Counted from the first letter of the stretch, positions 15,231 through 31,494 are shown. The stretch: DNA of 32,000 nt from Candidatus Methylomirabilis oxygeniifera (GCA_000091165.1 FP565575.1:1590001-1622000); one strand, 5' to 3'. Program-made: numbers and translations. The notes: generated from the sequence alone by a model not told the origin.

Positions 15231-15254
15231 CCTCATTCCTCCAGATAAGACAGC

Positions 15255-15329: not shown

Positions 15330-15351
15330 TTACTGATCGCTACCCGTCCTG

Positions 15352-15549: not shown

Positions 15550-15564
15550 CGTCACTCCTCCCTG

Positions 15565-16074
15565 TTAATGCTTGGGGGTGAGGATCATCACCATGTTCCG
15601 GCCTTCCTGCCTGGGATACTGCTCCAACACAGCGATCTCCTTGAGCGCCTCTGCAAAACGGTCCAACTGCGCCTTCCCGCGCTCGATATGAACCATCTCC
15701 CGGCCTCGGAACATCAGGGTCACCTTGGTCTTGTTCCCCTCCTTCAAGAAACGCTCGGCATGCCTGGACTTGAACTGGAAATCATGCTCATCGGTCTTGG
15801 GTCGGAGTTTGATCTCCTTGATCTGGATGACCGTCTGCTTCTTCCTCGCCTCCCGCGTCTTCTTGTTCTGCTCGTACCGATACTTCCCGTAATTCATGAT
15901 CCGGCAGACAGGCGGCTTGGCGTCCGGCGCCACCTCTACCAGATCGAGCGCGAGCTTCTGGGCGGTCTCAAGGGCCTCCTGAATCGGCAGGATCCCCAGT
16001 TGCGCCCCCTCCGGACTGATCACCCTCACCTCTTTGATCCGAATCCGCTCGTTCACCCGAACACTTCTACTGAT
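15565..16074 (-). CDS. infC: Translation initiation factor IF-3, probably with a non-canonical ATC start
   Basis: ..RSVRVNERIRIKEVRVISPEGAQLGI.. and the C-terminal domain are typical of IF-3. AAGGAGGG lies 7 nt upstream of the in-frame ATC at 16074-16072. The ORF-track TTG at 16110 has no SD. Confidence 0.88.
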   Translation of the reverse strand: MSRSVRVNERIRIKEVRVISPEGAQLGILPIQEALETAQKLALDLVEVAPDAKPPVCRIMNYGKYRYEQNKKTREARKKQTVIQIKEIKLRPKTDEHDFQFKSRHAERFLKEGNKTKVTLMFRGREMVHIERGKAQLDRFAEALKEIAVLEQYPRQEGRNMVMILTPKH

Positions 16075-18109: not shown

Positions 18110-18238
18110 GCTCTATCTCTGCCGTTGAGCACAGAAGGGCACCAGTAACGATAAGATGCCCTTTTCTGCTTAGGTGATTCTACCCGGGACAACAACCTGT
18201 CCGCGTACCACGCATAGGTCGCCGGGTGCTGCAAGCAA

Positions 18239-18313
18239 TGGTAGGCGCGGGCGGTCTTGAACCGCCGACCTCTTGCGTGTCAAGCAAGCGCTCTCCCCCT
18301 GAGCTACGCGCCT
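18239..18313 (-). tRNA. tRNA-Val(GAC): tRNA-Val, anticodon GAC, with encoded CCA
   Basis: The reverse complement reads AGGCGCG-TA-GCTC-AGGGGGA-GAGC-G-CTTGC-TTGACAC-GCAAG-AGGTC-GGCGG-TTCAAGA-CCGCC-CGCGCCT-A-CCA. This gives a 7-bp acceptor stem, canonical arms and the anticodon loop TT-GAC-AC. Confidence 0.93.
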
Positions 18314-18434
18314 AAATATCCTCACCGCCTTCGCGGTCAACGACGCATATCTTCAATCACTTAGGCCCATCCTGTCAAGGGAAAAGGCGATCTTCCTCAC
18401 CCATCCCGGGTAAGCGACCCTGCACGCCGGACCG

Positions 18435-19817
18435 CTATGGGAGCTTGATCCCATATTTCTTCATCAGGCGATGGACTGTCTTTCGGTCCACACAGGCAGC
18501 CTTTGCGGCTTGCGAGATATTGCCGTCATGCCGCTTGAGGAGCCGGACCAGATAGTCCCGCTCAAATGAGCCGGCCCACACCTCTTTTGCCCGCTTGAGC
18601 GGCAGTTCATTCGGCGACACCAGCAAGGCGGCTTCGGCCTTTATGCGGATCTGTTCCGGTAGATCCTGCGGCCGGACCAGCTCGTGTTCGGCCAGGACCA
18701 CCGCTCGCTCCATGACATTCTGAAGTTCGCGAACGTTCCCAGGCCAACTGTGCGCCTCCAGGAGCCGCATTGCCTCCGGCGTGACGCCTTTGACTTCCTT
18801 CTCGCTGCCGGCTGCATATTTTGTCAGGTAGTGATGCGCAATCAACTGAATATCTCCCGCACGATCGCGCAGGGGCGGCAGCGGAAGCGAGATGACGTTC
18901 AGGCGATAATAGAGGTCTTCCCGAAATCTGCCCATGGCGACGGCCTGAGCCAGGTCGTGGTTGGTGGCCGAGATGACGCGCACGTCCACCTCGATCATTC
19001 GGTTTGAGCCGACCCGTCGCACCTGACGTTCCTGCAGGACTCTCAGCAGCTTCGCCTGAAGATTCAGGCTGATGTCGCCCACTTCATCCAGGAAGATGGT
19101 CCCACCGCTGGCAAATTCAAACAGCCCGGGACGAGTCGCCTGCGCTCCCGTGAACGCGCCCTTCTCGTGTCCGAACAGTTCACTCTCCAACAGGTTCTCC
19201 GGAAGCGAGACGCAATCAACGGGGATGAACGGACCGGTCGCCCGACGGCTGTTGACATGGAGACTCCTGGCGATCAGCTCTTTGCCGGTCCCGGTCTCAC
19301 CGATGATCAGGATGTTGGCCTCGCTCTTCGCCACCTTCTTGATGGTCTCAAAGACCTGGAGCATCGGCAGGCTCCTGCCGATGATATTGTCGAACCGATG
19401 GGTCTCGGTCAGTTGCTCCAGAAGTCGCCGGTTCTCTTCCCGCAAACGACGCCGGTCCATCGCCCGCTCGACACAGACCCTGAGTTGATCAGCCGAAAAC
19501 GGCTTGGGCAGATAATCGAATGCGCCTTCTTTGATCGCTTCGACGGCGGTCTCGATCGTGGCAAAGGCGGTGATCAGGATTACGGTCGCTTCGGGATCGA
19601 TTGCCCGAATCGCCTGGAGGACGCCCAGGCCGTCAAGGCCCGGCATGCGAAGATCGGTGAGCACCAAATCCGGCCTTTCCCGCTCGTACAGCGTGGCTGC
19701 CTTGCCGCTCTCGGCCTCGGTCATCGCCTCGTAGCCAAAGCGAGTGAGCAGCCTGGCGCAGTTTTCGAGCATGTCCACTTCGTCATCGATCACCAGTACT
19801 CGGCCTAGCTTCGGCAT
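18435..19817 (-). CDS. Sigma-54-dependent response regulator (REC + AAA+ + Fis-type HTH; NtrC family)
   Basis: RVLVIDDE..LVLTDLRMPG (receiver), GETGTGKE, GAFTGA, GGTIFLDEV and the C-terminal HTH ISQAAKAACVDRKTVHRLMKKYGI. The ATG at 19817 has GAAGGGA upstream. The GTG at 19841 would overlap the kinase stop. Confidence 0.9.
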   Translation of the reverse strand: MPKLGRVLVIDDEVDMLENCARLLTRFGYEAMTEAESGKAATLYERERPDLVLTDLRMPGLDGLGVLQAIRAIDPEATVILITAFATIETAVEAIKEGAFDYLPKPFSADQLRVCVERAMDRRRLREENRRLLEQLTETHRFDNIIGRSLPMLQVFETIKKVAKSEANILIIGETGTGKELIARSLHVNSRRATGPFIPVDCVSLPENLLESELFGHEKGAFTGAQATRPGLFEFASGGTIFLDEVGDISLNLQAKLLRVLQERQVRRVGSNRMIEVDVRVISATNHDLAQAVAMGRFREDLYYRLNVISLPLPPLRDRAGDIQLIAHHYLTKYAAGSEKEVKGVTPEAMRLLEAHSWPGNVRELQNVMERAVVLAEHELVRPQDLPEQIRIKAEAALLVSPNELPLKRAKEVWAGSFERDYLVRLLKRHDGNISQAAKAACVDRKTVHRLMKKYGIKLP

Positions 19818-19837
19818 CCTGTCCCTTCTCTCATCTT

Positions 19838-21163
19838 TCACGCGTCCTCCGCCGGCAACGTCATGACAAAGGTGGTCCCATTCCCGGCCTCGCTCCGGAC
19901 GTCCAGCCGCCCCCCATGCTCTTTGACGATTCCATAACTGATCGACAGGCCCAGCCCTGTACCGTTCTGCTTCGTGGTGAAGAATGGGTCAAAGATCTGC
20001 TGGACAAGCATCTCGGGAACCCCATCCCCGGTATCGGCGACCAGGATTTGGACAGTTCTGTCGTCTGCTCCTAAGCGGCTCTCCACACGGAGGCGGCCGC
20101 CGGCAGTCATCGCCTCGCGAGCATTGGTGAACAGATTCAGCAATACCTCCTCCAGTTGGCTGACGTTTCCCTTCACCTTCGGCAGCGAAGGCGCGAGGCG
20201 CCGTTCCAGAACGATCTGCTCTTTTTCAAGCTGTCGCTCGATCAGCAGCAGGCTCTCCTCGATCACTCCATTCATGTCCAAGGACAGCCGTTGTCCGGTA
20301 GCAGGCCGGGAGAAGGACAGCAGCCCTCGCGCCACGCGGGCTGCCCGCTGGGCGTGCTTCTCGATCACCTTCAGGTCATCAATGAACTGCTTCGGAATCT
20401 CTGTCTCCTGCGCATCCATCAAGGCCAACTCTACACGGGAAGTGATGATCCCAAGCGGGTTATTGATCTCGTGTGCGAGACCCGCTGACAGCGTCCCAAG
20501 GGCGCTCAACTTCTCGACCTGGCGCACTTGCCGCTCCAGGGCAACGCGCCTGGTCACGTCCTCCTTCAACTCGCGATTGACGGCTTCCAACTCGCGTCGA
20601 GCCCGCCGCTCCCGCTCGGAAAGGATGACAAGAGGCGCCACCACCAAGATCATAAAGCCCAACCGTAGAGAGACGATGCTCGCGGAGGTCGGTTGCCAGG
20701 AAGGCCAGATAACCATCACATACAGAAGCGAGGACGAGACCAGCACTCCGACGCCGCGCCGGAAGCCATAATAGTAGGCCTGGAGAGCGGCGATCAAATA
20801 GAGCGCCAGAAAAAATGGACTCTCGACTCCGCCGGTCAGCCGAATCAGGGCCAGGGAAAAACCCAGATCGATCATCAGGACCAGGAGGTTGAGTCGCTTC
20901 ATCCGCTCCTGGTGAGCCACAATCCAGGCATAGAGCAGGATACAGTACAGCGTGAAGGCGTGTAGAAGGAGGGTGACCGCACTTCGCTGGAGCTGGGGAA
21001 AAGGAGTCAGCAGGAGCCACCCATACCCCCCGATGATGGCCGCAACCCTGAGGGCCACAAAATCGTACATCGGAGACTGGCGATGTCCCCGTGTCAGGAG
21101 AGCCAGGATATTGTCGTCGCTTTTCGTTGACACTTTCTCTGTTGCCTCGACACCATTACTCAT
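19838..21163 (-). CDS. Sensor histidine kinase with a multi-pass membrane N-terminal domain
   Basis: About 5-6 hydrophobic helices, then H-box LSAGLAHEINNPLG, N-box LLNLFTNAREAM and G-boxes DTGDGV and GTGLGLSISYGIV. Confidence 0.9.
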   Translation of the reverse strand: MSNGVEATEKVSTKSDDNILALLTRGHRQSPMYDFVALRVAAIIGGYGWLLLTPFPQLQRSAVTLLLHAFTLYCILLYAWIVAHQERMKRLNLLVLMIDLGFSLALIRLTGGVESPFFLALYLIAALQAYYYGFRRGVGVLVSSSLLYVMVIWPSWQPTSASIVSLRLGFMILVVAPLVILSERERRARRELEAVNRELKEDVTRRVALERQVRQVEKLSALGTLSAGLAHEINNPLGIITSRVELALMDAQETEIPKQFIDDLKVIEKHAQRAARVARGLLSFSRPATGQRLSLDMNGVIEESLLLIERQLEKEQIVLERRLAPSLPKVKGNVSQLEEVLLNLFTNAREAMTAGGRLRVESRLGADDRTVQILVADTGDGVPEMLVQQIFDPFFTTKQNGTGLGLSISYGIVKEHGGRLDVRSEAGNGTTFVMTLPAEDA

Positions 21164-21231
21164 ATCATAATTTCACCTATTCAATTTTAACTATTTTAGT
21201 CTGCCCGGAGAACGCGGGTCAACCCCCGTAG

Positions 21232-21254
21232 CATTCCTCTGTCATCAGAGAATG
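21232..21254. promoter_or_regulatory. Imperfect inverted repeat upstream of candidate sigma-54 promoter P1
   Basis: CATTC(C)TCTG-tcat-CAGAGAATG. Its centre lies about 41 bp upstream of the -24 GG. Confidence 0.3.
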
Positions 21255-21282
21255 AGATCCGTTCCATCCCGCTGCCCCCACC

Positions 21283-21298
21283 TGGCCCAAGAGTTGCT
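21283..21298 (+). promoter_or_regulatory. Candidate sigma-54 (-24/-12) promoter P1
   Basis: TGGCCCaagagTTGCT compared with consensus TGGCAC-N5-TTGCW. GG at 21284-21285 and GC at 21296-21297 give exact GG-N10-GC spacing. It points at the ferredoxin-bEBP gene. Confidence 0.5.
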
Positions 21299-21383
21299 AG
21301 CGAGAAGAGGGGCAGGCGTGAGCCCCCCGATGCCGTCCGGCGTGCCCGCCGGACGGCAGGGGACCCCCCAGGAGTCCACGAGG

Positions 21384-23054
21384 ATGACGCGGATGCGCAA
21401 GGTCCGGTTTGAACCGCTGGGCATCACCATCGAGTGTGACGACACCGAGTCGGTCCTGCAGGTCGCCCTGCGCCAGGGCCTGCGCCTGGTCGATTACCGC
21501 TGCGCGGACGGCGAGTGCGGGGGCTGTAAGGCCCGCCTCCGCAGCGGCCAGGCCCACCTGGTCGCGCCGCCGGATCACGTGCTCTCCGCCAGCGAGCAGG
21601 CCCAGGGCCACGTCCTGCTCTGCCGCACCCACGTCCAAAGCGATCTGGTGATCGAGCTCTTAGCCGGCTCGCTCCTCGCCCCGCCGTTGCCCGACGTCCC
21701 GCCGGCGCGCGCTGCCGAGGCGCTGCTGGGGCCGCTCACCGCCGCCGCGGAGTTGCTCAGCGACGGCCTGCTGGTGCTGGATCCGCAGGGGCAGGTGCTG
21801 CTGTGCAATCGGGCCGCCGCGCACCTGCTGCAGCTCGACCCCGCCCGGCCCTCCGTCGCGGCGATCCCGGAGCTGGCCGAGGTCGGCCGCACCCTGCTGA
21901 CCCGTGCCCCCTCCAGCCCCCAGGAGGTCAAGGTCTACTGCGGGCGCAGCGGCCGGCTCCTTACGGCCTGGGGCCTGGCGCTCCGGCACGGCTCGCAGGT
22001 GGTCGCCGCCGCCGTGCTCTTTCCGACCGCCCGACTGGAGCCGCCCGTCCCCCGCAAGCCCAAGGCGATCGTGGTGGGGGCCAAGTACACCTTTGCCGAT
22101 CTGGTGGGGCAGTCCGCCGCCTTCCGCAACGCGACCAAGATCGGCCTCATCGCCGCCGGCAACACCCTCTCCGTCCTCATCACCGGGGAATCGGGGACCG
22201 GGAAAGAGATGCTCGCGCATGCGATCCACGCCAGCTCCCCCCGCGCCCCCAAGCCGTTCATCGCGGTCAACTGCGGTGCCATCCCCCGGGAGCTGATCGA
22301 GTCTGAGCTGTTCGGCTATGAAGACGGCACCTTTACCGGCGCGCGCAAAGGCGGCCGGTCGGGCCGGTTCGAAGAGGCCCAGGGCGGCACCCTCTTCCTC
22401 GATGAGGTCAGCGAGTGCTCGCCCAGCACCCAGGTGGCGCTCCTGCGGGTGCTGGAGCAGCAGGAGCTCACCCGACTAGGGAGCGGCCAGCCGGTCCCCC
22501 TCGATGTCCGCATCATCGCCGCGACCAATAAAGACCTGCTCAAAGAGGTGGCCAAGGGGCTGTTTCGGGAGGACCTGTACTACCGGCTCAATGTCATTTC
22601 GATCCACCTGCCGCCCTTGCGGGAGCGGCGGGAGGATATCCCCCTGCTGGCGGCCTCCTTCCTGGCCGATGTCGCCGCCGCCTTGCACTGCCCGGACCTG
22701 CGCTTTACGGAGGAGGCGCTGCGCGCGCTCGCGCTCACCCCGTATCCGTGGCCCGGCAATGTCCGGGAGCTGCGCAATGTCCTGCAGCAGGTGGGCGTGC
22801 TCCTGCCGCGGCCCGAGATCCGCTGGGACGACTTTCCCGAGGCGATTCGCACCCTGCGCGGGGAGGCCTCCGAGCGGCCGGAGCCCGGCGGCTGGCTCGC
22901 GCAGACCGAACGGCAGCTCATCTGTCAGATCGTCCAGCAATGTGCGGGGAATTTGTCGCAGGCCGCGGCCCAGCTCGGCATCTCCCGCAGTACGCTGTAT
23001 CGCAAACTGGAGCAGTTTGGTCTGAAACGACAGACGCAGATTGACTCAGTCTGA
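21384..23054 (+). CDS. Sigma-54 enhancer-binding protein with an N-terminal plant-type 2Fe-2S ferredoxin domain and a PAS-like domain
   Basis: VRFEPLGITIECDDTESVLQVALRQGLRLVDYRCADGECGGCKARL..GHVLLCRT gives C-x4-C-x2-C-x31-C spacing. The PAS-like segment is AELLSDGLLVLDPQGQVLLCNRAAAHLL. AAA+ motifs are GESGTGKE, GTFTGA and GGTLFLDEV. The HTH is LSQAAAQLGISRSTLYRKLEQFGL. I chose the ATG at 21384 (AGGAG 9 nt upstream). The ORF-track ATG at 21252 lies upstream of the putative promoter. Confidence 0.85.
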   Translation: MTRMRKVRFEPLGITIECDDTESVLQVALRQGLRLVDYRCADGECGGCKARLRSGQAHLVAPPDHVLSASEQAQGHVLLCRTHVQSDLVIELLAGSLLAPPLPDVPPARAAEALLGPLTAAAELLSDGLLVLDPQGQVLLCNRAAAHLLQLDPARPSVAAIPELAEVGRTLLTRAPSSPQEVKVYCGRSGRLLTAWGLALRHGSQVVAAAVLFPTARLEPPVPRKPKAIVVGAKYTFADLVGQSAAFRNATKIGLIAAGNTLSVLITGESGTGKEMLAHAIHASSPRAPKPFIAVNCGAIPRELIESELFGYEDGTFTGARKGGRSGRFEEAQGGTLFLDEVSECSPSTQVALLRVLEQQELTRLGSGQPVPLDVRIIAATNKDLLKEVAKGLFREDLYYRLNVISIHLPPLRERREDIPLLAASFLADVAAALHCPDLRFTEEALRALALTPYPWPGNVRELRNVLQQVGVLLPRPEIRWDDFPEAIRTLRGEASERPEPGGWLAQTERQLICQIVQQCAGNLSQAAAQLGISRSTLYRKLEQFGLKRQTQIDSV

Positions 23055-23120
23055 GACAGCTGTGGTGGGACAGCTGTCGCAGGGTGGGGCGAATTGGACT
23101 CGACGCTCTTATCACCCGTG

Positions 23121-23149
23121 TTACAGCGGGCAGCCCGCACAATTATAAT
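23121..23149 (+). promoter_or_regulatory. Candidate sigma-70 promoter for the outer-membrane protein gene
   Basis: TTACAG (23121-23126), 17 nt, then a perfect TATAAT (23144-23149), in an AT-rich spacer. Confidence 0.5.
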
Positions 23150-23218
23150 TAAAGGTTAGTGGATCAATGGAGCTTCACGACCGAGGGAACCATCACATCT
23201 TACCAAGGGGGGTGAATA

Positions 23219-24118
23219 GTGAAAATCTTAGGGACACATGTGGGCAAGACGGGCTGGACTGCGGTCGCACTTTTATTGTTTATGCCATTGTTTTCTCTCT
23301 TCATAGGGAATGCGGAAGGACAAACTCGCAGTGAACTGAACCAACTGAAGCAGGAGTTACAAATGCTGCGAAACGAAGTTCAAACGAAGAACAATATGAT
23401 TAACCGGATGCAGCAGCGTTTAGAGGCACTCGAGACGAAGATGCAGGCGGAAGTTCCGCGTCCCGTGGAAGAGAAAATGACCGCTCTGAAGGAGGAGATG
23501 AAGACTGAGTTGGCCGCGAAGGCGGCAAGCTCCGGACTGTCTGGGGGGCAGGTCTTCTTTAAGGGTGGATTTGTCCGCATGGATCATCCGCGGAGCAATT
23601 CACTCTTGACGGCCCAAAGCGATTCCGGCGATAAAGACGGTTGGCAGGTCGGAGGCGGAGTGGACCTGCCTATAATGACGATCTTCAACAGTACGCTTCT
23701 TGGGGAAATCTATGTTGAATATATTCAGACCCAGAAGACGAAAGGTGATTCGCCTGTCGAGGTAGAACCGGGAGCCCCGGGAAAGAAGCTCGCGGAGAAG
23801 AGGGGATTGGAAAACATTCTGACCGTGGGTGTCGCCCCAAAAATCCGGTTCGACAACCTGGGCTCCATCCGACCCTGGCTGGCCCCCTATCGGCCCTGGA
23901 TTATGCCTGTCGGCCTGACCTTCAATGTAAATACCCCCGTCAATAAGGCCATTACCAACATCAGCGTGGGTGGAGTCAGCGGATTTGGCGCTGAACGGCT
24001 TTTCTGGAACAACCGGGTTAGTCTTGGCGTCGACTTCCGCTACTATTGGGGTCCTGATATCCCGGATGAAAACCTCCGACACTTTACCACTGGGGGCTAT
24101 GTCGGGCTCAATTTCTAA
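23219..24118 (+). CDS. Putative outer-membrane beta-barrel protein with signal peptide and N-terminal coiled coil
   Basis: Signal-like N-terminus (TAVALLLFMPLFSLFIGNAEG), about 70 aa of heptads (LNQLKQELQMLRNEVQ..LEALETKMQ), then alternating-hydrophobic strands ending in YVGLNF (terminal Phe). GTG start with AGGGGGGTG upstream. About 52% GC on sampled lines. Confidence 0.65.
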   Translation: MKILGTHVGKTGWTAVALLLFMPLFSLFIGNAEGQTRSELNQLKQELQMLRNEVQTKNNMINRMQQRLEALETKMQAEVPRPVEEKMTALKEEMKTELAAKAASSGLSGGQVFFKGGFVRMDHPRSNSLLTAQSDSGDKDGWQVGGGVDLPIMTIFNSTLLGEIYVEYIQTQKTKGDSPVEVEPGAPGKKLAEKRGLENILTVGVAPKIRFDNLGSIRPWLAPYRPWIMPVGLTFNVNTPVNKAITNISVGGVSGFGAERLFWNNRVSLGVDFRYYWGPDIPDENLRHFTTGGYVGLNF

Positions 24119-24126
24119 CAGAACAG

Positions 24127-24147
24127 TTGTCTCACCCGCTGAGACAA
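24127..24147 (+). terminator. Hairpin directly after the outer-membrane protein gene stop (no U-tract)
   Basis: TTGTCTCA-cccgc-TGAGACAA, starting 9 nt after the stop codon. Confidence 0.35.
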
Positions 24148-24181
24148 GACATGATGCAAAATGAGATTGATATGTGTGGTA

Positions 24182-24221
24182 GAGAAGGGGGAGGCCGTCT
24201 TGGGGACGCCTCCCCCTTCTC
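24182..24221. other. Strong hairpin: 14-bp perfect stem with a 12-nt loop
   Basis: GAGAAGGGGGAGGC (24182-24195) pairs with GCCTCCCCCTTCTC (24208-24221). No adjacent T-tract on either strand. Confidence 0.5.
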
Positions 24222-24290
24222 GCAACGCGATGCCTACAGAGCTCGGCCCCTGTCAGCCTTCAGAATAATCGCTCTTATTTTGTTCCAGCT

Positions 24291-24306
24291 TGTGATTGTT
24301 ATCACA
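24291..24306. promoter_or_regulatory. Perfect 16-bp palindrome TGTGATTGTTATCACA
   Basis: It fits both the CRP-type TGTGA-N6-TCACA and the NifA-type UAS TGT-N10-ACA. Its centre is about 39 bp upstream of the -24 GG of P2. Confidence 0.45.
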
Positions 24307-24335
24307 TTTTCTGGATGGTTGGTGTGCTAACCCCA

Positions 24336-24351
24336 CGGCACCAATAGTGCA
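24336..24351 (+). promoter_or_regulatory. Candidate sigma-54 (-24/-12) promoter P2
   Basis: cGGCACcaataGTGCA. GG at 24337-24338 and GC at 24349-24350 give exact GG-N10-GC spacing. The next plus-strand gene starts at 24601. Confidence 0.45.
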
Positions 24352-24600
24352 TAGACAACACCATGCTTTTGTAACTGCAATGTGTGGGTTTATTCGCTTC
24401 TTCCCGATTCTCCCCTGGTCCGACACAACGCTCAATCCTTCAACATCCCACTGACATTACCCACCTCTCCCTTGTCAGCTGCCTCGGAAGTGTGGATAAT
24501 CATCACGCCAGCCTACTGGATTCCGGCAATGAGCGTTGGGTAAGAAGATCGTCGTCCGACAGGGACCAAAAGGGTCCGATTCGGCAGAAGGAGGAGTCGT

Positions 24601-25035
24601 ATGCATGTCACACTTGAACAGGCAGAGAAGGCAATTGCGGCAGCCATCGACAAGGCCAAAGAGCTTGGGACGTGTATGGATATTGCCGTCGTGGACTCAG
24701 GCGCCAACTTGAAGGCGTTCGTCCGGATGGACGATGCGTGGGTCGGGAGCATCGACATCGCCTTCAAAAAGGCGAAAACCGCGTGCTTCTTTGCGATGCC
24801 GACAGGACAGATCGGCAAGCTGTCCCAGCCCGGCGGCCCGCTCTACGGGATTGAGCACAGTAACGATGGGCTCATCACCTTTCCCGGCGGGCTGCCGATT
24901 GTCAACACGGATGGAGTCCTGATCGGGGCGATCGGGGTCAGCGGCAGCACGGTGGAGCACGATCATCTCGTGGCCCAGGCCGGCGTCAAGGTAATTGGTC
25001 TTGCCGATCTCCCGGTACACCCATGGCGGACATAG
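24601..25035 (+). CDS. GlcG/HbpS-like protein (DUF336, heme-binding family)
   Basis: 144 aa: [58 protein letters not shown]...[10 protein letters not shown]. Strong SD AAGGAGGAG. No signal peptide. Confidence 0.85.
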
Positions 25036-25128
25036 GATTCCTCTCCCCGCCTGGAGAGAAGATCGCGGTGATGGGGAGCCAACGTACCGATCTGCAATCT
25101 CATTGACGCGCCGTCGGTGCATGAGGCA

Positions 25129-25557
25129 TCACCTGATTGCGAGTTTCCCTTTATGGTCGAGCGGACTGATCCACGGGAACCTGGTGCAGCCGAACGCGAA
25201 GACTCCGGAACGCTCTGCCAGAAACTCAATGGTAATTTCCTGCCCCGGCTCGAGATAGCGCCTGACCTCCAGGTCGGGGATTGAAAACACATGCCTGGCG
25301 CCATCGCTGCGAATCGCGACCTTGACCAACGCCGACCTCCCTTCTCGATCCACCGCGACGACAGAGGGCTCACAGCGATAGTTCCGGGCGATCATCGTAA
25401 AAGACAGTCGTTTCGCCTCTACAGGGATACCGGCGGGAGGGGAGATTTCAGGGAAGACGGTCGCGCACCCTGTCATGACCACGACCGGGATCGCCAGTGG
25501 CCAGATTCGGAATCGGCGTATGAGCGTGCTGATTGAAAACCTTCCTATGCTTCGCAT
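25129..25557 (-). CDS. Cupredoxin-like lipoprotein
   Basis: Lipobox VVVMTGC. Cupredoxin-like layout ..ARHVFSIPDLEV..LEPGQEITIEFLAERSGVFAFGC...LDHKGKLAI. His, Cys and His ligand positions are plausible, but no obvious Met ligand. I chose the ATG at 25557; the ORF track starts at 25578. Confidence 0.6.
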   Translation of the reverse strand: MRSIGRFSISTLIRRFRIWPLAIPVVVMTGCATVFPEISPPAGIPVEAKRLSFTMIARNYRCEPSVVAVDREGRSALVKVAIRSDGARHVFSIPDLEVRRYLEPGQEITIEFLAERSGVFAFGCTRFPWISPLDHKGKLAIR

Positions 25558-25617
25558 CGTGCTATCGCACAATACCATAGGGTTGCAAAGGTTTTCAAGT
25601 GCGGCGACGAACGAGAC

Positions 25618-25646
25618 TTCACAAAACTGCAGAAAGCTCCTATGAT
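25618..25646 (+). promoter_or_regulatory. Candidate sigma-70 promoter for the response regulator / kinase operon
   Basis: TTCACA (25618-25623), 17 nt, then TATGAT (25641-25646), 40 nt upstream of the ATG at 25686. Confidence 0.4.
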
Positions 25647-25685
25647 AACCTAGGGCTGTTGAAGCCGCCCCCTCTCAAAGCGACC

Positions 25686-27068
25686 ATGACACAAACAAGA
25701 ATATTAATTGCAGACGACGAACCTGCGTCCAGAGCCGGCCTCCAAGAGCTCCTCGCAAGCTGGGGATACGAGGTCACCGCTGCTGCTGACGGTCAGGAGG
25801 CCCTGGAGAAGGCCTCTGAACTCCAACCGTCTCTCATTATCGCCGATCTCATCATGCCGAAAATGGACGGCATCGCTCTCCTTCGCGCCCTCAAGAGCGA
25901 TGCGATCCTTCCATCGCTGATCATTCTGACCGGCCAGGGGACCATCGAGACTGCGGTCCGGGCTATGCAAGAGGGAGCCTACGACTACCTGACCAAACCG
26001 GTCGATATCGGGCGGCTCCGCGTCCTTGTGGAGAAGGCCCTCGAACGTGGAGCGGTATTGAAGGAGGTCAAGCTACTGCGTCACCAGGTTCGTCATCTCG
26101 GCCGGTTTGGACAGTTGGTCGGCGAGACGTCCGCCATGAAGGAGGTCTACCGACTGCTTGAATTGGCGGCGCCCAGCGCTGCGCCCGTCTTCATCTGGGG
26201 AGAGAGCGGAACAGGAAAGGAGCTGGCGGCCAGAACGATTCACGATCTCTCTCCACGGAAACAGAGCCCTTTCGTCCCGATCAACTGTGCCGCTATCCCG
26301 GAGACGCTGTTGGAAAGTGAGATTTTTGGCCACGAGAAGGGAGCCTTTACCGGCGCTACCGAGCGAAGAATGGGATATTTTGAGCTGGCCGACAGCGGAA
26401 CTATTTTTCTTGATGAAATTGCGGAGATGAAGGTCTCCACCCAGGCGAAGTTTCTCAGGATCCTCCAGGAGGGAACCTTCCGCCGCCTGAGCGGAAGCAA
26501 AGAGATCCGCGTTGATGTCCGGGTGGTCGCCGCGACAAATAAAAACCCGGCGCAAGCAGTTCAGGATGGTCTCATCCGTGAGGATCTCTATTATCGGCTG
26601 AACGTGTTCAACATTCAACTACCTCCTCTTCGGGAACGGCGCGAGGATCTTCCTCTCCTCATTCGATCGTTCCTTGAGGAGTTCAAGAGGAAATACGATA
26701 CGGCAGTACGCAGCGTAGGCGCAGGGTCGCTCACCCTGCTGACCGAATACGATTGGCCCGGAAATGTTCGGGAGCTTCGAAATGTGCTGGAGCGGGCCGT
26801 CCTCGTGGCCCAGAGCAACACAATCACCCCAGATGATCTGCCGCCGAACTTTCCGAGTCACCGTCGTCGGTCAATCCGGGAGCCTGATCTTTCCGTCGGA
26901 ATCACAATCGATGCGGCAGAACAAGCCCTGATTCTCGCAACACTGGAACGAACACACCAGAACAAGACTAAGGCTGCGGAGATTCTTGGGATCAGTCTAA
27001 AGACGCTGCATAATAAGTTGACCCGCTATCGCGAAGAGGCCTCCTCGCCGGCGGATCCGCGGGAATAG
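25686..27068 (+). CDS. Sigma-54-dependent response regulator (NtrC family)
   Basis: RILIADDEP..LIIADLIMPKMDG (receiver), GESGTGKE, GAFTGA, SGTIFLDEI and the HTH KTKAAEILGISLKTLHNKL. ATG at 25686 (MTQTRIL..). Confidence 0.92.
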   Translation: MTQTRILIADDEPASRAGLQELLASWGYEVTAAADGQEALEKASELQPSLIIADLIMPKMDGIALLRALKSDAILPSLIILTGQGTIETAVRAMQEGAYDYLTKPVDIGRLRVLVEKALERGAVLKEVKLLRHQVRHLGRFGQLVGETSAMKEVYRLLELAAPSAAPVFIWGESGTGKELAARTIHDLSPRKQSPFVPINCAAIPETLLESEIFGHEKGAFTGATERRMGYFELADSGTIFLDEIAEMKVSTQAKFLRILQEGTFRRLSGSKEIRVDVRVVAATNKNPAQAVQDGLIREDLYYRLNVFNIQLPPLRERREDLPLLIRSFLEEFKRKYDTAVRSVGAGSLTLLTEYDWPGNVRELRNVLERAVLVAQSNTITPDDLPPNFPSHRRRSIREPDLSVGITIDAAEQALILATLERTHQNKTKAAEILGISLKTLHNKLTRYREEASSPADPRE

Positions 27069-27074
27069 GTTCAC

Positions 27075-28880
27075 ATGTCGTTCGGCCTCCGAGGCAAAGC
27101 GGTCCTCGGCATCAGTCTTCTGGTCTTCCTGATCGTCTCACTTACGGTGGTCGTTCACCTCTCCACCACCACCCGCTTGGTTGTTCAGCATGCGGCGGAA
27201 AAGGGCGCCATACAGGCACAGCACATCTTCTCCGGAAGCACCCGGGTCATGGCTCGCGCGCAGAGGAGCCGTTTAGGGGATGCGTTGCGCAACGATCGAG
27301 AACTCCGCGCGCTTCTCGACGCCAGCATCGGCTATTCCCCGCACTTGGTCTATGCCATGATTACCGACCGCTCGGATACGGTCCTCATGCACAGTCAGCG
27401 TTCCCGTGAAGGAAACAAGGTCCCACCCAGACCGAAGATTGAACAGTTGATGGCGATCAACCCTCTTCGTCAGCTCGCGGTACTGGCCGGCCAGCACCAG
27501 GTACTTGAGACCGTCCTGCCGCTCAGCCTCAACGATCGGCCTTTCGGGGCAATTCGGCTTGGATTGGCCGGCGGTCTCCTCTGGCGCGAACTCTTGCCCG
27601 CGGTTCGGCAAAGTGTGCTGCTGGCACTACTCGCTTTCCCGCTCGCCTGGATCGTCGCCCTTGTCCTGTCGAACCTGGTGGTCGCGTCGTTGCGTCAGAT
27701 TGCCCAAGGCGTTGATCGGATGGCACGCGGCGAGTTTGACACAGTCTTTACGTCCGACCGCGACGACGAGGTAGGACAGATTGCGGCAAAGCTCAATCTC
27801 CTGGGGCGGCAGGTCCAGGAAGACCGATCCTCCCTGATCAGCGAAAAGGTCAGATTGGAAGGGATCGTTCACCGTCTGGAAGACGCCATCATCCTGCTGA
27901 ATAGCGAACAGGCTATCATCTTCGCCAACCCCGCCGCCGAGATCCTGCTGGTCCGTCCACTCGTGCATGCTGTCGGTCAATCGCTGGCACATATCCTGGG
28001 GGAGACTCACCCATTAGTCGCGGCAACGGTCGAGAGTTTCCAGCGGCAAGCGCCCGTGCGAAACCTGACGCTTCAAATGAGGGAACACCGCGACGTCCCT
28101 TTAGATGTCCTAGCCTCCATCTACCCGGTGCTCGATAAGGATGGTATCGTCGGGGGAATGATCCTTCTCAAAAATACCGAACCACTCCGCCAGATCCAGT
28201 CACTCGTAGACTATTCCAGAAAGCTGGCCGACCTTGGGAGGCTCACCTCTGGGGTGGCCCATGAAATCAAGAATCCGTTGAACGCCATGATCATTCACTT
28301 AGAGCTGTTGAAACAGAAATTGAACGATCCTTCGGAGACGGTGGCGAAGAGTCTGGAATTTCTCGGGGGAGAGGTTCATCGCCTTGATCGTATGGTGCAA
28401 GGCTTTCTCCGATTTGTCCGTCCTCAAACGCTTGCGCTTCGACCCATGAGCCTCAATACCCTCCTCCAGGAAGTCGTCCGGTTGGCTGAGGCGCAAGGAG
28501 CGCATGCCGGGGTGACGTTTGTACTTCGCCTCGACGGCACGATCCCTCCGATCAATGGCGATCATGAGCTGCTTCGACAGGCCTTCCTCAACCTGGTCCT
28601 GAATGCGTGCCAGGCAATGCCGGATGGAGGAGCGGTCACCCTTGCCACGGATCGGAGCGCTGAGGGTGCCATCCGCGCCCACGTCATCGATCACGGCATA
28701 GGGATTCCCGCGGAAGACCTCGACAAGATATTCCGTCTTTACTACACTACCAAGCCGGACGGGAACGGGATCGGGCTGTCGTTGGTGTACCGAATCGTTC
28801 AGATGCACGGCGGCAGCGTCGAGGTCGACTCGAAGGTAGGACAGGGAACAACAATGGCGGTCACTTTTCCTGTAGCCTGA
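27075..28880 (+). CDS. Sensor histidine kinase (2 TM + periplasmic domain, HAMP, PAS, HisKA, HATPase_c)
   Basis: TM helices near aa 10-30 and 180-205, HAMP (LRQIAQGVDRMARGEFD), PAS-like (IVHRLEDAIILLNSEQAIIFANPAAE), H-box LTSGVAHEIKNPLN, N-box NLVLNACQAM and G-boxes DHGIGIP and GIGLSLV. Confidence 0.92.
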   Translation: MSFGLRGKAVLGISLLVFLIVSLTVVVHLSTTTRLVVQHAAEKGAIQAQHIFSGSTRVMARAQRSRLGDALRNDRELRALLDASIGYSPHLVYAMITDRSDTVLMHSQRSREGNKVPPRPKIEQLMAINPLRQLAVLAGQHQVLETVLPLSLNDRPFGAIRLGLAGGLLWRELLPAVRQSVLLALLAFPLAWIVALVLSNLVVASLRQIAQGVDRMARGEFDTVFTSDRDDEVGQIAAKLNLLGRQVQEDRSSLISEKVRLEGIVHRLEDAIILLNSEQAIIFANPAAEILLVRPLVHAVGQSLAHILGETHPLVAATVESFQRQAPVRNLTLQMREHRDVPLDVLASIYPVLDKDGIVGGMILLKNTEPLRQIQSLVDYSRKLADLGRLTSGVAHEIKNPLNAMIIHLELLKQKLNDPSETVAKSLEFLGGEVHRLDRMVQGFLRFVRPQTLALRPMSLNTLLQEVVRLAEAQGAHAGVTFVLRLDGTIPPINGDHELLRQAFLNLVLNACQAMPDGGAVTLATDRSAEGAIRAHVIDHGIGIPAEDLDKIFRLYYTTKPDGNGIGLSLVYRIVQMHGGSVEVDSKVGQGTTMAVTFPVA

Positions 28881-28886
28881 TCCATA

Positions 28887-29333
28887 GTGAAAGAGATCTT
28901 AGCGGCAACGTTCCGAATAATCGTCACGTTTCTATGCCTCATGCTGACGGCGGGTTGCACTCAGCTTAAGGCGGTATTCACACCAACCCGTTCGCCCTCA
29001 GGCGCCGGGCGCCCGGCGCGTCAGACACTACCACCAGGGTCTGCGCATCCGGCGCGTCAGGAGCCATCGCCGCGGCTGGCTCCCCAGGTAAGCTCTGATC
29101 GGGAAAAGCAACTGACGGAGGAGATCAATACAACGATCCAGGAGGTCGAACGGGCCCTTCTGTCGGTCGATCAGCGGAAACTGAAGGCCGACCAGACGGA
29201 GACGTACCAGACTGTTCAGAGCTTTCTTGCCCAGGCCAGGAAGGCACTCACCGACAAGGACCTCCAGAGGGCAATGAACTTAGCTCAGAAGGCACACATC
29301 CTTTCCGACGAACTCGCCAATATGGTCCATTAA
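28887..29333 (+). CDS. Lipoprotein with a predicted helical C-terminal domain, unknown function
   Basis: Lipobox LTAGC, a Pro/Ser/Arg-rich linker, then about 75 aa of helix-prone sequence (EINTTIQEVERALLSVDQRKL..LAQARKALTDKDLQRAMNLAQKAH). GTG start 6 nt after the kinase stop, with no clear SD. Confidence 0.6.
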   Translation: MKEILAATFRIIVTFLCLMLTAGCTQLKAVFTPTRSPSGAGRPARQTLPPGSAHPARQEPSPRLAPQVSSDREKQLTEEINTTIQEVERALLSVDQRKLKADQTETYQTVQSFLAQARKALTDKDLQRAMNLAQKAHILSDELANMVH

Positions 29334-29509
29334 TCGGCACAACGTCCCTTCTCCCACCGGACTTGGCCCTGCGCCTTATTTCAGGCGCAATAATGCGGGC
29401 AGGGCAGCCGCTTTCGCGTGTCTCCGCCTCATTAACCCAGGAAGAAATTACTCGCCACCCCCCATACTTTCGACTCTTCCTAAGAAACGATTAAGGTTAT
29501 CAGACATTG

Positions 29510-29533
29510 ATGCGGTAATGTAACTTACCGCAT
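29510..29533. promoter_or_regulatory. 24-bp palindrome ATGCGGTAA-tgtaac-TTACCGCAT, a candidate enhancer (UAS) for P3
   Basis: Perfect 9-bp arms. The centre lies 54 bp upstream of the -24 GG of P3. Coordinates were verified against ORF-track codons. Confidence 0.45.
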
Positions 29534-29573
29534 TTACAATGGTTGCACGTTTTTTGAATCACGGTCGGATTCC

Positions 29574-29589
29574 TGGCATACCGCTTGCT
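29574..29589 (+). promoter_or_regulatory. Candidate sigma-54 (-24/-12) promoter P3
   Basis: TGGCATaccgcTTGCT. GG at 29575-29576 and GC at 29587-29588. The predicted start is near 29600, followed by the SD AAAGGAGA and the GTG at 29622. Confidence 0.6.
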
Positions 29590-29621
29590 CCCTTTCCATT
29601 CTGAAGAAAGGAGATGGGGCG

Positions 29622-30062
29622 GTGAGCGCACGACAATTGCATTGTACAGGACAGAAGGTGCTCGTCGTAGATGACGATTCATCCTTCAGGGAACTCCTGA
29701 CCGAGCTTCTAGAAACGGCAGGCTACCACGTGTGGACTGCTCAAGACGGCCTGGCCGGCCTTCATGCCCTACACAACGGTCCATTCGATCTCATCCTGGT
29801 GGACTACCGAATGCCTGGAATGACCGGCCTCGACATGGCCGCACACATACGGAGGTCCGATACCGTGACTCCGATCATCCTTATCACGGGCGACTATTAC
29901 ATGCTTGACCCTGAGATCGTGACGCGGGCCGGGGTGACAAAGGTACTGCCGAAACCTCTTAAGATTAATGAGTTCTTAAACGTCTGTTCAATCGGAAAGC
30001 AACAATACAAATATGAACCATGCCTCGACAATCCGAGCAGAGGAGGGAGCTGGGATGCGTAG
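29622..30062 (+). CDS. Single-domain CheY-like response regulator (receiver only, short C-terminal tail)
   Basis: VLVVDDD, LILVDYRMPGMTG (phospho-acceptor Asp), IILITGD and KVLPKPL. No output domain. Confidence 0.85.
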   Translation: MSARQLHCTGQKVLVVDDDSSFRELLTELLETAGYHVWTAQDGLAGLHALHNGPFDLILVDYRMPGMTGLDMAAHIRRSDTVTPIILITGDYYMLDPEIVTRAGVTKVLPKPLKINEFLNVCSIGKQQYKYEPCLDNPSRGGSWDA

Positions 30063-30294
30063 GACATTGTCCAAAGGGATTGCATTAGGGGCGCTGGTAC
30101 TCGCGCTCACCACAGGGTGCGCCGGGATGTCGACACGCCAGCAACGTGCCTTGAGCGGCGGTGCCATCGGCGCGGCCGGCGGCGCAGCGATTGGGGCAAT
30201 GGCCGGCAGCCCGACAACGGGCGCCATCGTGGGTGGCGCGGTAGGAACGGCGACAGGCGCCCTGTGGGACGATATCAAGAAATCGCTGAAGTAA
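30055..30294 (+). CDS. OsmB-like glycine-zipper lipoprotein (79 aa)
   Basis: Lipobox LTTGC, then GGAIGAAGGAAIGAMAGSPTTGAIVGGAVGTATGAL. The ATG at 30055 has AGGAGGGA upstream and overlaps the receiver gene stop by 8 nt. Confidence 0.8.
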   Translation: MRRTLSKGIALGALVLALTTGCAGMSTRQQRALSGGAIGAAGGAAIGAMAGSPTTGAIVGGAVGTATGALWDDIKKSLK

Positions 30295-30618: not shown

Positions 30619-31494
30619 ATGGGTCGGCGGTGGACCCTTGCCGGGTTATCAGGTGTGATAGCGCTTGTAGCGTGCCTCGGACTGCTTGGCCCTGCCTGGT
30701 CCGAGACGCCAAAGGTGTTGCGGGTGTCGGCCATCCCGGACGAGAATCCTACCGAGTTGATGCGGATCTACACCCCTTTCGCCGAGTATCTGAGCAAAGA
30801 GCTGGGCATCCCGGTCAAATATATCCCCGTGGTGGACTACGCCGCAACCGTCGAGGCCCTGGCGGCGAAGAAACTGGACATGGTGTGGTACGGCGGGTTC
30901 ACCTTTGTCCAGGCTCGAAAGCGGACAGGCAATGCGATCCCGGTGGTAAGTCGAGAGGAGGATCTGCGTTTTCACAGTAAATTTATTACCAGGCCGGACA
31001 CCGGCATCAAGACCCTGGCCGACCTGAAGGGCAAGAGCTTTTCATTCGGAAGTGTCAGTTCGACATCAGGCCATCTCATGCCGCGCTATTTCCTGCTGCA
31101 GAATGGGATTGACCCGGAAAAAGATTTTGCCACATTCAGCTTCAGCGGGGCTCACGATGCGACAGCGCTATGGGTAGAGAGCGGGAAGGTTGACGCCGGA
31201 GCTTTAAACGAAGCGGTGTGGGACAAGCTGGTTCAGGCCAAGAAGGTCGATCTCAACAAGGTGCAGGTCTTCTGGACGACGCCCCCCTATATCGACTATG
31301 TCTGGACGGTGCGAGGCGATCTGGACAGCAGTCTCGTCGAAAAGATTGCCGCAGCCTTCACCAGGCTGAACTACAGCATTCCAGCGGACAAAGCATTGAT
31401 GGACCTTCAGCGAACGAAGCGATACGTCCGCGTCAAGGCCGAGCAGTTCAAGCCCGCTGAAGAGGCGGCCATTGCTGCCGGGCTGCTTCAATAG
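30619..31494 (+). CDS. phnD: PhnD-family periplasmic substrate-binding protein of an ABC transporter (phosphonate/phosphite-type; substrate not determinable)
   Basis: Signal peptide, then LRVSAIPDENPTELMRIYTPFAEYLSKELGIPV..DMVWYGGFTFVQA..GSVSSTSGHLMPRY. SD CAGGAGGG upstream. Confidence 0.75.
   Translation: MGRRWTLAGLSGVIALVACLGLLGPAWSETPKVLRVSAIPDENPTELMRIYTPFAEYLSKELGIPVKYIPVVDYAATVEALAAKKLDMVWYGGFTFVQARKRTGNAIPVVSREEDLRFHSKFITRPDTGIKTLADLKGKSFSFGSVSSTSGHLMPRYFLLQNGIDPEKDFATFSFSGAHDATALWVESGKVDAGALNEAVWDKLVQAKKVDLNKVQVFWTTPPYIDYVWTVRGDLDSSLVEKIAAAFTRLNYSIPADKALMDLQRTKRYVRVKAEQFKPAEEAAIAAGLLQ

Follow-up and report, generated by a model that had tools for sequence, protein, structure and literature searches.

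Three genes for sigma-54 activators (bacterial enhancer-binding proteins, bEBPs) and two genes for histidine kinases lie within 12 kb of DNA from Candidatus Methylomirabilis oxygeniifera, in a stretch of 32,000 nucleotides (GCA_000091165.1, FP565575.1:1590001-1622000) which was analysed as a whole and is called here the window. The dense region (18435-30294) also carries three matches to the -24/-12 promoter consensus, P1, P2 and P3, and was taken in a first-pass annotation for a local regulatory cascade. Comparison with related loci makes it likely that this region is composed of three unrelated sigma-54 modules brought together by deletion of the operons that separated them. In the first module, the kinase HK1 and the activator bEBP1 are probably orphaned; the second is a duplicated activator with a ferredoxin (Fer2) domain, the Fer2-bEBP, whose target, the pmoCAB genes, would lie elsewhere; the third, composed of bEBP3, the kinase HK3 and P3, would be intact.

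According to this reading, the ancestral order would have been thrS, bEBP1, HK1, a divergent Nar/Nxr-like operon, P1, the Fer2-bEBP gene, repeats, an outer-membrane-type gene, Alternative Complex III (ACIII) and HbpS, and the lineage of the window would have lost both structural operons, the Nar/Nxr-like one and ACIII. The three activator genes would stand within 12 kb because about 13 kb of intervening target operons has been lost. Operon loss explains the crowding better than the cascade does; the apparent regulatory hub would be a by-product of genome reduction, which calls for caution in reading gene-dense regulator clusters as cascades.

Intervening operons in related genomes

The loci used for comparison (L-numbers) are genome and metagenome-assembled contigs. 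Domains were assigned with Pfam, equivalogs with NCBIfam and its curated cut-offs, and RNA elements with Rfam. Proteins homologous to those of the region carry the names Candidatus Methylomirabilis or candidate division NC10, and we interpret the window (59% GC) as part of such a genome. The features between the Fer2-bEBP gene and the HbpS/GlcG-like gene are the following.

23120-23149, plus strand: sigma-70-like promoter for the outer-membrane-type gene downstream (GTTACA-18-TATAAT, 10/12 positions), kept in L022
23219-24118, plus strand: secreted protein without family (signal peptide, coiled coil, C-terminal ...GLNF)
24151-24330, plus strand: 5' remnant of actA (multihaem cytochrome c), 58 codons (to 24324), stop at 24330
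24307-24388, no strand: junction DNA at the ACIII deletion, particular to the window, 82 nt, containing P2
24336-24351, plus strand: P2, a -24/-12 look-alike (cGGCAC-N5-GTGCA)
24389-24454, plus strand: 3' remnant of actF, last ~22 codons
24472-24500, plus strand: sigma-70-like promoter (TTGTCA-17-GATAAT, 10/12 positions), kept in L022, ~100 nt before the HbpS/GlcG-like gene
24601-25035, plus strand: HbpS/GlcG-like protein (Pfam PF03928, E 3e-39), which comes after actF in L022

In L022 (GCA_040960765.1), which is 95% identical to the window in DNA, a complete operon of six act genes (actA to actF) lies between the Fer2-bEBP and secreted-protein genes on one side and the HbpS-like gene on the other. 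It encodes a multihaem cytochrome c, a 1019-aa molybdopterin/FeS subunit, NrfD, ActD, a cytochrome c and a 422-aa membrane subunit. By blastn, window 13751-24305 aligns to L022 2340-12928 and window 24389-26037 to L022 20059-21677, and the 7.1 kb in between (L022 12929-20058) is missing from the window. Remnants of both ends of the operon could be detected: ActA residues 1-58 are found by tblastn at 81% identity, with a DNA alignment to L022 that holds to ~24306, and homology resumes at L022 20059, ActF ending at 20124. The protein encoded at 23219-24118, for which no Pfam or NCBIfam family is found above cut-off, has a 251-aa orthologue that precedes ActA in L022 as the first gene product of the ACIII operon there. 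A deletion of ACIII is also seen in L003, where it is independent and has other breakpoints (window 24151-24454 against L022 12774-20124 and L003 12911-13013).

Two further observations concern the act genes. A perfect 14-bp GC-rich hairpin (window 24182-24221), kept in L022, lies in the 5' part of the actA frame; possible explanations are an attenuator or terminator that separates actA from the outer-membrane-type gene, or a miscalled start of actA. In L022, a high-scoring -24/-12 match (TGGCACTCAGTCTGCT, 15.3) is found at 19298, inside actF and ~975 nt before the HbpS-like gene, in the segment deleted from the window.

The second operon concerns the HK1-bEBP1 pair, whose surroundings in the window are as follows.

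16067-18109, minus strand: thrS
18239-18313, minus strand: tRNA-Val (Rfam)
18435-19817, minus strand: bEBP1, NtrC-type response regulator (receiver, Sigma54_activat with E 5.6e-72, HTH_8)
19838-21163, minus strand: HK1, histidine kinase (HisKA and HATPase_c by Pfam; 200-aa N-terminus without assignment), in operon with bEBP1
21193-21222, minus strand: sigma-70-like promoter of the HK1-bEBP1 operon (TTGACC-18-TAAAAT, 10/12 consensus positions)
21233-21254, no strand: palindrome assigned to P1 by the first-pass annotation (CATTCCTCTG-TCAT-CAGAGAATG, imperfect)

In L031, an HK1 orthologue of 86% identity is found in the same order (HK1, bEBP1, thrS), and the kinase gene is divergent from a molybdoenzyme operon (L031 204-6640) coding for a 1159-aa molybdopterin enzyme, an FeS subunit, an EB_dh haem subunit and a NarJ-like chaperone. 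Past this operon come P1 and, at the contig end, the start of the Fer2-bEBP gene. A -24/-12 match of high score, TGGCACGGCGATTGCT (17.5), stands 46 nt before the gene of the 1159-aa enzyme. The same layout was observed in L032 (1-6427), with an orthologue of the PAS-kinase type and a weaker -24/-12 site at the same position, the EB_dh subunit being named for L031 only. An element, GGGGCATCACAACCCCAG, ~190 nt upstream of the -24/-12 site is common to both loci, as is the GGTCAAC motif of the sigma-70-like promoter of HK1. Homology between the window and L031 ends at 21117 and resumes at 21379; the NarG/Nxr-like operon unit (a type-II molybdoenzyme) is found neither in the window nor in L022, and no copy of the GGGGCATCACAACCCCAG element is present in the window, even with four mismatches. 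These results suggest that the HK1-bEBP1 pair, probably transcribed from its sigma-70-type promoter, had the NarG/Nxr-like operon as its ancestral target and is probably orphaned in the window, since the target operon, its promoter and the upstream element have been lost. The bEBP1 orthologue in L022 starts at the equivalent position. Most NC10 orthologues of HK1 are PAS kinases of 550-590 aa which have the C-terminal 54% alone in common with it.

HK1 itself seems to be a mosaic: over its C-terminal 54% it shares 63-87% identity with these PAS kinases of other NC10 genomes, and its N-terminal 200 aa are common only to a few close orthologues and to a set of paralogues at ~50% identity.

The Pfam domains confirm the three activator genes and two kinase genes at the coordinates first given for them. 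The full sigma-54 activator signature, which had been attributed to all three activators, holds for the AAA+ domain, for Walker A (GE(T/S)GTGKE) and Walker B ((I/L)FLDE(V/I)), and for HTH_8 (E-values 6.5e-6, 3.9e-13 and 2.5e-11); the sigma-54 contact loop is GAFTGA in bEBP1 and bEBP3, but GTFTGA in the Fer2-bEBP, a variant kept in 20 orthologues. As none of the three reaches an NCBIfam equivalog cut-off (AtoC 508 and 438 bits for 714 required, PrdR 332 for 795), those of NtrC, ZraR, NorR and NifA included, they are generic members of the NtrC family; the best match of bEBP1 is AtoC, at 508 bits.

Two points weigh against the reading by operon loss. The deletions are deduced by comparison with metagenome-assembled contigs, which can be chimeric around a 1.8-kb repeat; and an RpoN-box search revealed no rpoN in the window or in the retrieved loci, a collection-wide search for rpoN not having been made, so that we infer its presence in the genome only from the many bEBPs of NC10 bacteria.

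Scores and conservation of the -24/-12 matches

Both strands of the window were scored with an approximate -24/-12 weight matrix modelled on the published consensus, the scores being therefore approximate as well, and the chance expectation was obtained from 300 windows simulated with a first-order Markov model. The three 16-mers proposed as promoters were read in the sequence where the first-pass annotation had placed them, and the GG-N10-GC spacing is exact in each. P3 (score 16.3) ranks first in the window, with 0.043 such matches expected per window, and P1 (13.9) second, with 0.47 expected at a score of at least 13.9. P2 (10.8) ranks fourth, with coding-sequence matches of 10.2-10.5 right beside it; at scores of at least 10.8, four matches are observed for 3.8 expected per window. 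The motif TGGCACN5TTGCW with at most one mismatch is found in P1 and P3 only (0.72 expected), and with at most two mismatches, which is the class of P2, at 18 sites for 13 expected. There is no overall enrichment of -24/-12 matches in the window. P3 is significant by score alone; P1 is not and needs conservation, which it has; P2 is at background level. When coding DNA was scored along with the rest of the window, P3 and P1 stood as the top two, but P2 was no better than matches in coding sequence.

It is extremely improbable that none of the three sites is functional and that all are coincidental matches at this GC content. At least two consensus matches with at most one mismatch were indeed obtained, window-wide, in 15 of 100 shuffles, and a match scoring at least 13.9 in 39% of the simulated windows. 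Nevertheless, P3 and P1 are kept base for base in orthologous intergenic regions with diverged flanks, both lie between genes in the right orientation, at 33-101 nt from start codons, and P3 is the sole matrix match conserved across six syntenic loci. Sigma-54 promoters, like NtrC-type regulators and the enhancers these bind, belong to textbook knowledge, and P1 and P3 would be ordinary new members of this promoter class.

The third module, to which P3 belongs, is composed of the following features.

25129-25578, minus strand: cupredoxin-like protein (Pfam), divergent from bEBP3, syntenic in relatives
25686-27068, plus strand: bEBP3, NtrC-type response regulator (receiver, Sigma54_activat with E 3.5e-68, HTH_8)
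27075-28880, plus strand: HK3, sensor kinase (sCache_3_2-HAMP-PAS-HisKA-HATPase_c by Pfam)
28887-29333, plus strand: small lipoprotein (LTAGC lipobox), last gene of the bEBP3-HK3 operon, position kept in relatives
29366-29405: nested hairpins 3' of the small lipoprotein gene (inverted repeats)
29510-29533, no strand: P3 dyad, candidate bEBP3 enhancer (ATGCGGTAA-N6-TTACCGCAT)
29574-29589, plus strand: P3, sigma-54 promoter (TGGCAT-N5-TTGCT), 33 nt before the receiver gene
29622-30062, plus strand: single-domain response regulator, receiver only (Pfam, orthologues)
30055-30294, plus strand: glycine-zipper lipoprotein, 79 aa (ATG at 30055, lipobox-like LTTGC, Pfam Gly-zipper families), overlapping the stop of the receiver gene
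30619-31494, plus strand: phosphonate-type ABC binding protein

Six loci of conserved gene order (cupredoxin on the opposite strand, bEBP3, HK3, small gene, receiver, glycine-zipper gene, ABC transporter), whose receivers are 62-86% identical to that of the window, were used for the comparison of P3. One of them, L030, begins ~600 nt before the receiver gene and informs on the promoter and the downstream genes only; 460-aa orthologues of bEBP3 are present in five of these syntenic loci. The promoter sequence TGGCAT[AG]C[CT][GA]CTTGC does not vary between the window and the six loci (7/7), despite diverged flanks. Upstream of it, the dyad has arms that are 9/9 complementary and a centre 53.5 nt upstream of the GG; its core TGTAA is invariant in the seven loci, and the arms are symmetric in register, with 74.6% of cells paired as compared with 22-43% in shifted controls. 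P3 probably heads its own transcription unit, since the nested hairpin at 29366-29405 comes after the preceding lipoprotein gene. In agreement with the first-pass annotation, these data point to P3 as a sigma-54 promoter with its own dyad, next to bEBP3-HK3 and in front of the receiver and lipoprotein genes. It is most likely that bEBP3 and HK3, the latter a kinase whose Cache sensor domain is periplasmic, activate P3 by way of the conserved dyad and so drive the single-domain receiver and the glycine-zipper lipoprotein; this reasonable proposal is made because the adjacency of bEBP3-HK3 to P3 is conserved, synteny and conservation being computed and binding deduced from them. It is the only link of the proposed wiring that appears to survive. 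Two results argue the other way: covariation of the dyad is not above that of shuffles (seven sequences only), and at about -78 the dyad is nearer to the promoter than most characterised enhancers, sigma-54 enhancers typically being found 80-200 nt upstream of the -24/-12 element.

The glycine-zipper orthologues (75-80 aa) are encoded by separate overlapping genes in the window and many relatives, and are fused to the receiver (223 aa) in others. L027 was excluded from the comparison, its receiver homologue being a paralogue in the cell-division (dcw) cluster; this single-domain receiver (L027 6001-6405, 68% identical) is encoded between a 122-aa gene after rsmH and an ftsI-like gene.

The first-pass annotation had given each promoter a different palindrome, as binding sites for three different activators. 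Three palindromes do exist, centred 38.5-53.5 nt upstream of the GG, that of P2 being TGTGAT-N4-ATCACA and that of P1 imperfect; the dyad of P3 alone is conserved in relatives.

P2 had been proposed as the promoter of the GlcG-like gene, under the control of the Fer2-bEBP. It lies in the 82-nt junction (24307-24388), for which no match is found in L022, L003 or any compared locus, and P2 itself is absent from L022 and L003. Its palindrome (24291-24306) is a coding remnant of actA. On account of its background-level score, its position at a deletion junction and its absence from relatives, the most plausible reading of P2 is that of a chance match, sited in a deletion scar. It would be highly improbable for P2 to be a new functional sigma-54 promoter which was made by the ACIII deletion and drives the HbpS/GlcG-like gene via a 250-nt leader. 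It has the correct GG-N10-GC spacing, is oriented towards that gene and stands in non-coding junction DNA, 6 nt past the stop of the truncated actA. On the other hand, several coding-sequence matches score as well, no conserved enhancer accompanies it, no Rfam element is found in the leader, and a conserved sigma-70-like site lies nearer to the gene, 100 nt from it. Two other candidates were rejected in this stretch: a CRP/FNR-type site (TGTGA-N6-TCACA, 24291-24306), which is actA coding sequence in L022, and a riboswitch or small RNA in the 250 nt between P2 and the HbpS-like gene, where Rfam finds none.

The features around P1 are listed below.

21283-21298, plus strand: P1, sigma-54 promoter (TGGCCC-N5-TTGCT), 101 nt before the Fer2-bEBP start
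21315-23091, plus strand: duplicated 1777-nt module (5' untranslated region (5'UTR), Fer2-bEBP gene, post-stop repeats)
21331-21358, plus strand: hairpin in the Fer2-bEBP 5'UTR, perfect 12-bp arms (inverted-repeat search)
21384-23054, plus strand: Fer2-PAS-bEBP (Fer2, weak PAS match, Sigma54_activat with E 7e-66, HTH_8)
23055-23077, plus strand: tandem repeats, candidate Fer2-bEBP binding site (GACAGCTGT-N5-GACAGCTGT), abutting the stop codon

The N-termini of the orthologues back the Fer2-bEBP start at 21384 and thereby the distance of 101 nt between P1 and the gene. In 12 of the 14 distinct upstream regions of orthologues, the motif TGG[CA][CA]C-N5-TTGCT stands 78-101 nt ahead of the start. 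The gene upstream of P1 is of four kinds: HK1 (window, L022, L005), thrS directly (L002, L008), a DEAD-box helicase (L023, L001, L006, L010) and a NarJ-like gene (L031). Across these contexts, only ~8-25 nt upstream of the TGG is conserved. Together with its second rank in the matrix search, these results support P1 as a real, conserved sigma-54 promoter of the Fer2-bEBP gene, as the first-pass annotation had proposed. Less favourable are the loss of the GG in L003 and L007, the lack of P1 in L034, a copy linked to pmo genes in the same species as the window, and the finding of no conserved activator site upstream of P1 among the compared loci.

The same annotation held that HK1/bEBP1 activates P1 through the palindrome at 21233-21254. 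This palindrome is seen only in the 95%-identical relative and is absent upstream of P1 in L023, L001, L002, L005, L006, L008, L009 and L031; it lies ~11 nt upstream of the -35 hexamer of the minus-strand sigma-70-like promoter of HK1, and could equally be an operator for that promoter. The proposed activation does not agree with the maintenance of P1 in loci without HK1/bEBP1, nor with the short conserved stretch upstream of P1, nor with the position of bEBP1 in relatives, where it faces another operon.

The whole cascade, in which HK1/bEBP1 would act on P1, the Fer2-bEBP on P2 and the HbpS/GlcG-like gene, and bEBP3/HK3 on P3, each via a palindrome 39-54 nt upstream of the GG, is consequently very unlikely. 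Its elements are all at their positions, P1 and P3 lead the -24/-12 matches of the window, HK1/bEBP1 adjoins P1 in the window, L022 and L005, and in L005 a remnant (GAGGCATTACAACCCCAG) of the presumed bEBP1 element GGGGCATCACAACCCCAG is found 55 nt upstream of P1. But P2 is a chance-level match in junction DNA absent from relatives, with a palindrome made of actA coding sequence; neither the P1 palindrome nor the bEBP1 element is conserved with P1, which persists beside a helicase gene, thrS or a NarJ-like gene; and the operon that bEBP1 faces in relatives is its own and sigma-54-driven. Deletion of the separating operons is retained as the preferred reading.

The ferredoxin-PAS activator, its duplication and the copy at pmoCAB

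The Fer2 domain of the activator encoded at 21384-23054 is recognised by PF00111 with 42.7 bits for a cut-off of 21 bits. The cysteines of its CX4CX2CX31C motif (C40, C45, C48 and C80) are invariant in 20 orthologues. Its best match in the PDB is the [2Fe-2S] domain of MmoC, the reductase of soluble methane monooxygenase (1JQ4, E 6e-10); ferredoxins also match. A [2Fe-2S] ferredoxin fold is thus predicted, through whose cluster the protein may sense redox state or oxygen/NO. The AlphaFold model of the Fer2-bEBP was not used for fold searches, its mean pLDDT being 48.7 and the Fer2 region of low confidence; residues ~120-215 alone are reasonably confident, with a PAS-like order of strands and helices.

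A search of 1.84 billion representative proteins finds the whole Fer2-plus-PAS region (232 aa) in one NC10 cluster alone, the other matches covering the ferredoxin domain only. The outside matches checked with Pfam are Fer2-FAD-NAD reductases of soluble di-iron monooxygenases, one stand-alone ferredoxin, a 346-aa protein with Fer2 only, and a GAF-PAS protein that matches the linker instead; no bEBP is among the five longest matches outside the NC10 family, which were those checked. A search of the literature found no bEBP with a ferredoxin domain. The ferredoxin-PAS activator appears to be restricted to NC10 bacteria in this set of proteins and would represent a new sensor architecture, found neither outside NC10 among these representatives nor in the searchable literature.

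The gene is part of a duplicated module. GCA_040960765.1 encodes the same 558-aa protein twice (L022 and L023), with 99.6% DNA identity over 1819 nt, P1 included; the identity breaks off sharply 8 nt upstream of P1 and 34 nt past the stop codon. The exact protein of the window (556 aa) is also encoded on other contigs, among them L034, where the order is helicase, Fer2-bEBP, pmoC, pmoA, pmoB. Window 21315-23091 is 99.9-100% identical to the corresponding sequence of L034-L039, which include the pmoCAB copy and stand-alone contigs. Several of the contigs, of ~1777 nt, are the module alone, a form to be expected from the collapse of a repeat during assembly; one module contig comes from run SRR023516, which we take to be a run of the original M. 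oxyfera study. In L034 the stop codon of the helicase gene is fused to GCCCCCCGATGCC and P1 is absent; comparison with L023 suggests that ~45 nt between short direct repeats were deleted. Of the copies seen in this species, that of the window alone is preceded by a -24/-12 promoter.

The module has 70% GC and a GC3 of 0.89, and the neighbouring genes have GC3 values of 0.64-0.73. The identity of 99.6-100% between copies within a genome suggests ongoing, possibly GC-biased, gene conversion; GC-biased conversion is a speculation compatible with the GC3.

Directly after the bEBP stop codon, a pair of GACAGGTGT repeats with a period of 14 nt is present in all ten loci that reach that far, the version of the window and L034 being GACAGCTGT. 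A matrix match at 23066-23081 (TGGGACAGCTGTCGCA) was rejected as promoter of the downstream gene: it corresponds to the second GACAGSTGT repeat, whose GG and spacing have not been maintained in L001, L005 and L007. The Fer2-bEBP gene adjoins pmoCAB in L005, L007 and L034, and the same pmoC start follows it in L023 and L001. From the bEBP stop to pmoC, the pmo contexts (L034 2786-3270, L023 11678-12170 and the equivalents in L001, L005, L007 and L004) share one layout. The repeats are followed by a conserved block GAAC..CTTGATT(T/C)CAC, whose complement, as we read it, resembles an IHF site (AATCAAnnnnTTC). Next comes the invariant -24/-12 site, GTTTGGCA(C/T)(C/T)ATCCTTGC(G/T)TA (in short GTTTGGCAYYATCCTTGCKTA), ~135-165 nt from the repeats, and then a conserved sigma-70-like TTGACA-N18-TAnnnT, which a further GACAGGTGT-like copy overlaps. 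The pmoC gene starts ~330 nt downstream of the -24/-12 site.

Since repeats, bend site and -24/-12 element form the usual enhancer arrangement, the Fer2-bEBP may activate pmoCAB, and the sigma-54 promoter beside this identical second copy of the gene would be a much better target than P2. We tentatively propose, as a serious possibility which falls short of a firm claim, that NC10 pmoCAB is under the sigma-54 control of a lineage-specific redox-sensing bEBP which has an MmoC-related [2Fe-2S] input, binds the tandem GACAGGTGT repeats and fires the -24/-12 promoter of pmoC. There would be two gene-converting copies; because the window copy is the only one in this species seen with a sigma-54 promoter, it would supply the activator in trans. 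The second module of the window would then be a 1.8-kb GC-rich duplicated cassette that encodes a [2Fe-2S]-ferredoxin-PAS activator and ends in GACAG(G/C)TGT repeats, with P1 driving the window copy for a redox-dependent activation of pmoCAB. A point against this proposal is that the repeats of the window itself are followed by the sigma-70-like site at 23120-23149 only, without a sigma-54 promoter. The literature search found nothing relevant on sigma-54 or bEBPs, on sigma-54 promoters or regulation of pmoCAB, or on ACIII in Methylomirabilis. If true, the proposal would give a testable lead on how the uncultured intra-aerobic methane oxidisers (nitrite-dependent NC10 bacteria) regulate their key enzyme.

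P1 could also be autoregulated. The Fer2-bEBP, bound to the GACAG(G/C)TGT repeats 1.77 kb downstream or to weak look-alikes in the 5'UTR, would loop to its own promoter, and the module would be a self-contained positive-feedback unit; we consider this possible, although rather doubtful. The duplication in GCA_040960765.1 takes in P1, the gene and the repeats as one unit, the sharp boundary lying just upstream of P1; no conserved upstream site for another activator of P1 was detected; and a look-alike with two mismatches (GGCAGGCGT), read off the alignment, stands just 3' of P1 in the window and L022. However, the look-alikes near P1 are within chance expectation, as judged without statistics, the repeat unit in the window's species begins downstream of P1, its pmo-linked copy has no P1, and action over 1.8 kb, possible for bEBPs, is a conjecture in the case of P1. 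The 5'UTR of the Fer2-bEBP gene folds with -47 kcal/mol, and its hairpin was rejected as a conserved element, being strong in the clade of the window and L022 only. Whether or not P1 is autoregulated, activation of pmoCAB is the role that we favour for the Fer2-bEBP.

Other features of the window and comparison with known systems

Rfam finds only two RNA elements across the whole window, the tRNA listed above and a 6S RNA (RF00013, 82 bits) at 8980-9164, which is encoded on the minus strand and flanked by the RNase Y and pheT genes. The ~1.4 kb between pheT and pheS (12375-13750) contains no long open reading frame; its counterpart in L022 differs, with small genes and an NTP_transf_5 gene, and homology between the window and L022 starts at 13751.

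As in NtrB/NtrC-type systems (glnAp2, AtoSC, ZraSR), bEBP1 and bEBP3 have the receiver-AAA+(GAFTGA)-HTH_8 architecture and are encoded beside HisKA/HATPase_c kinases, and P3 is a TGGCAT-N5-TTGCT promoter with a dyad upstream. They differ from these systems in that the AtoC scores stay below the equivalog cut-off, the P3 dyad is only ~54 nt from the GG, the output of P3 is a stand-alone receiver with a glycine-zipper lipoprotein, and bEBP1 is without its presumed target operon in the window. The full actA-actF set between the Fer2-bEBP and HbpS-like genes of L022 is that of Alternative Complex III, whereas the window keeps 58 codons of actA and ~22 codons of actF only.

NorR, which senses NO by non-haem iron, and the oxygen-sensitive NifA are metal- or redox-sensing bEBPs. 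A redox-active metal centre in the N-terminal or interdomain region would gate the AAA+ domain in the Fer2-bEBP as in these proteins, the mechanism being deduced for the Fer2 domain; unlike them, the Fer2-bEBP carries a ferredoxin fold with the complete CX4CX2CX31C motif, resembling most the ferredoxin domains found in reductases of soluble di-iron monooxygenases.

In proteobacterial methanotrophs, the operon for soluble methane monooxygenase is controlled by the sigma-54 activator MmoR. The Fer2-bEBP differs from it by its linkage to pmoCAB, the genes of the particulate enzyme, in NC10 bacteria, by its Fer2 and PAS-like sensor and its GTFTGA loop, and by the duplication of its gene, the window copy of which is not beside pmoCAB. 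It resembles MmoR in being encoded beside a methane monooxygenase operon with a -24/-12 promoter.

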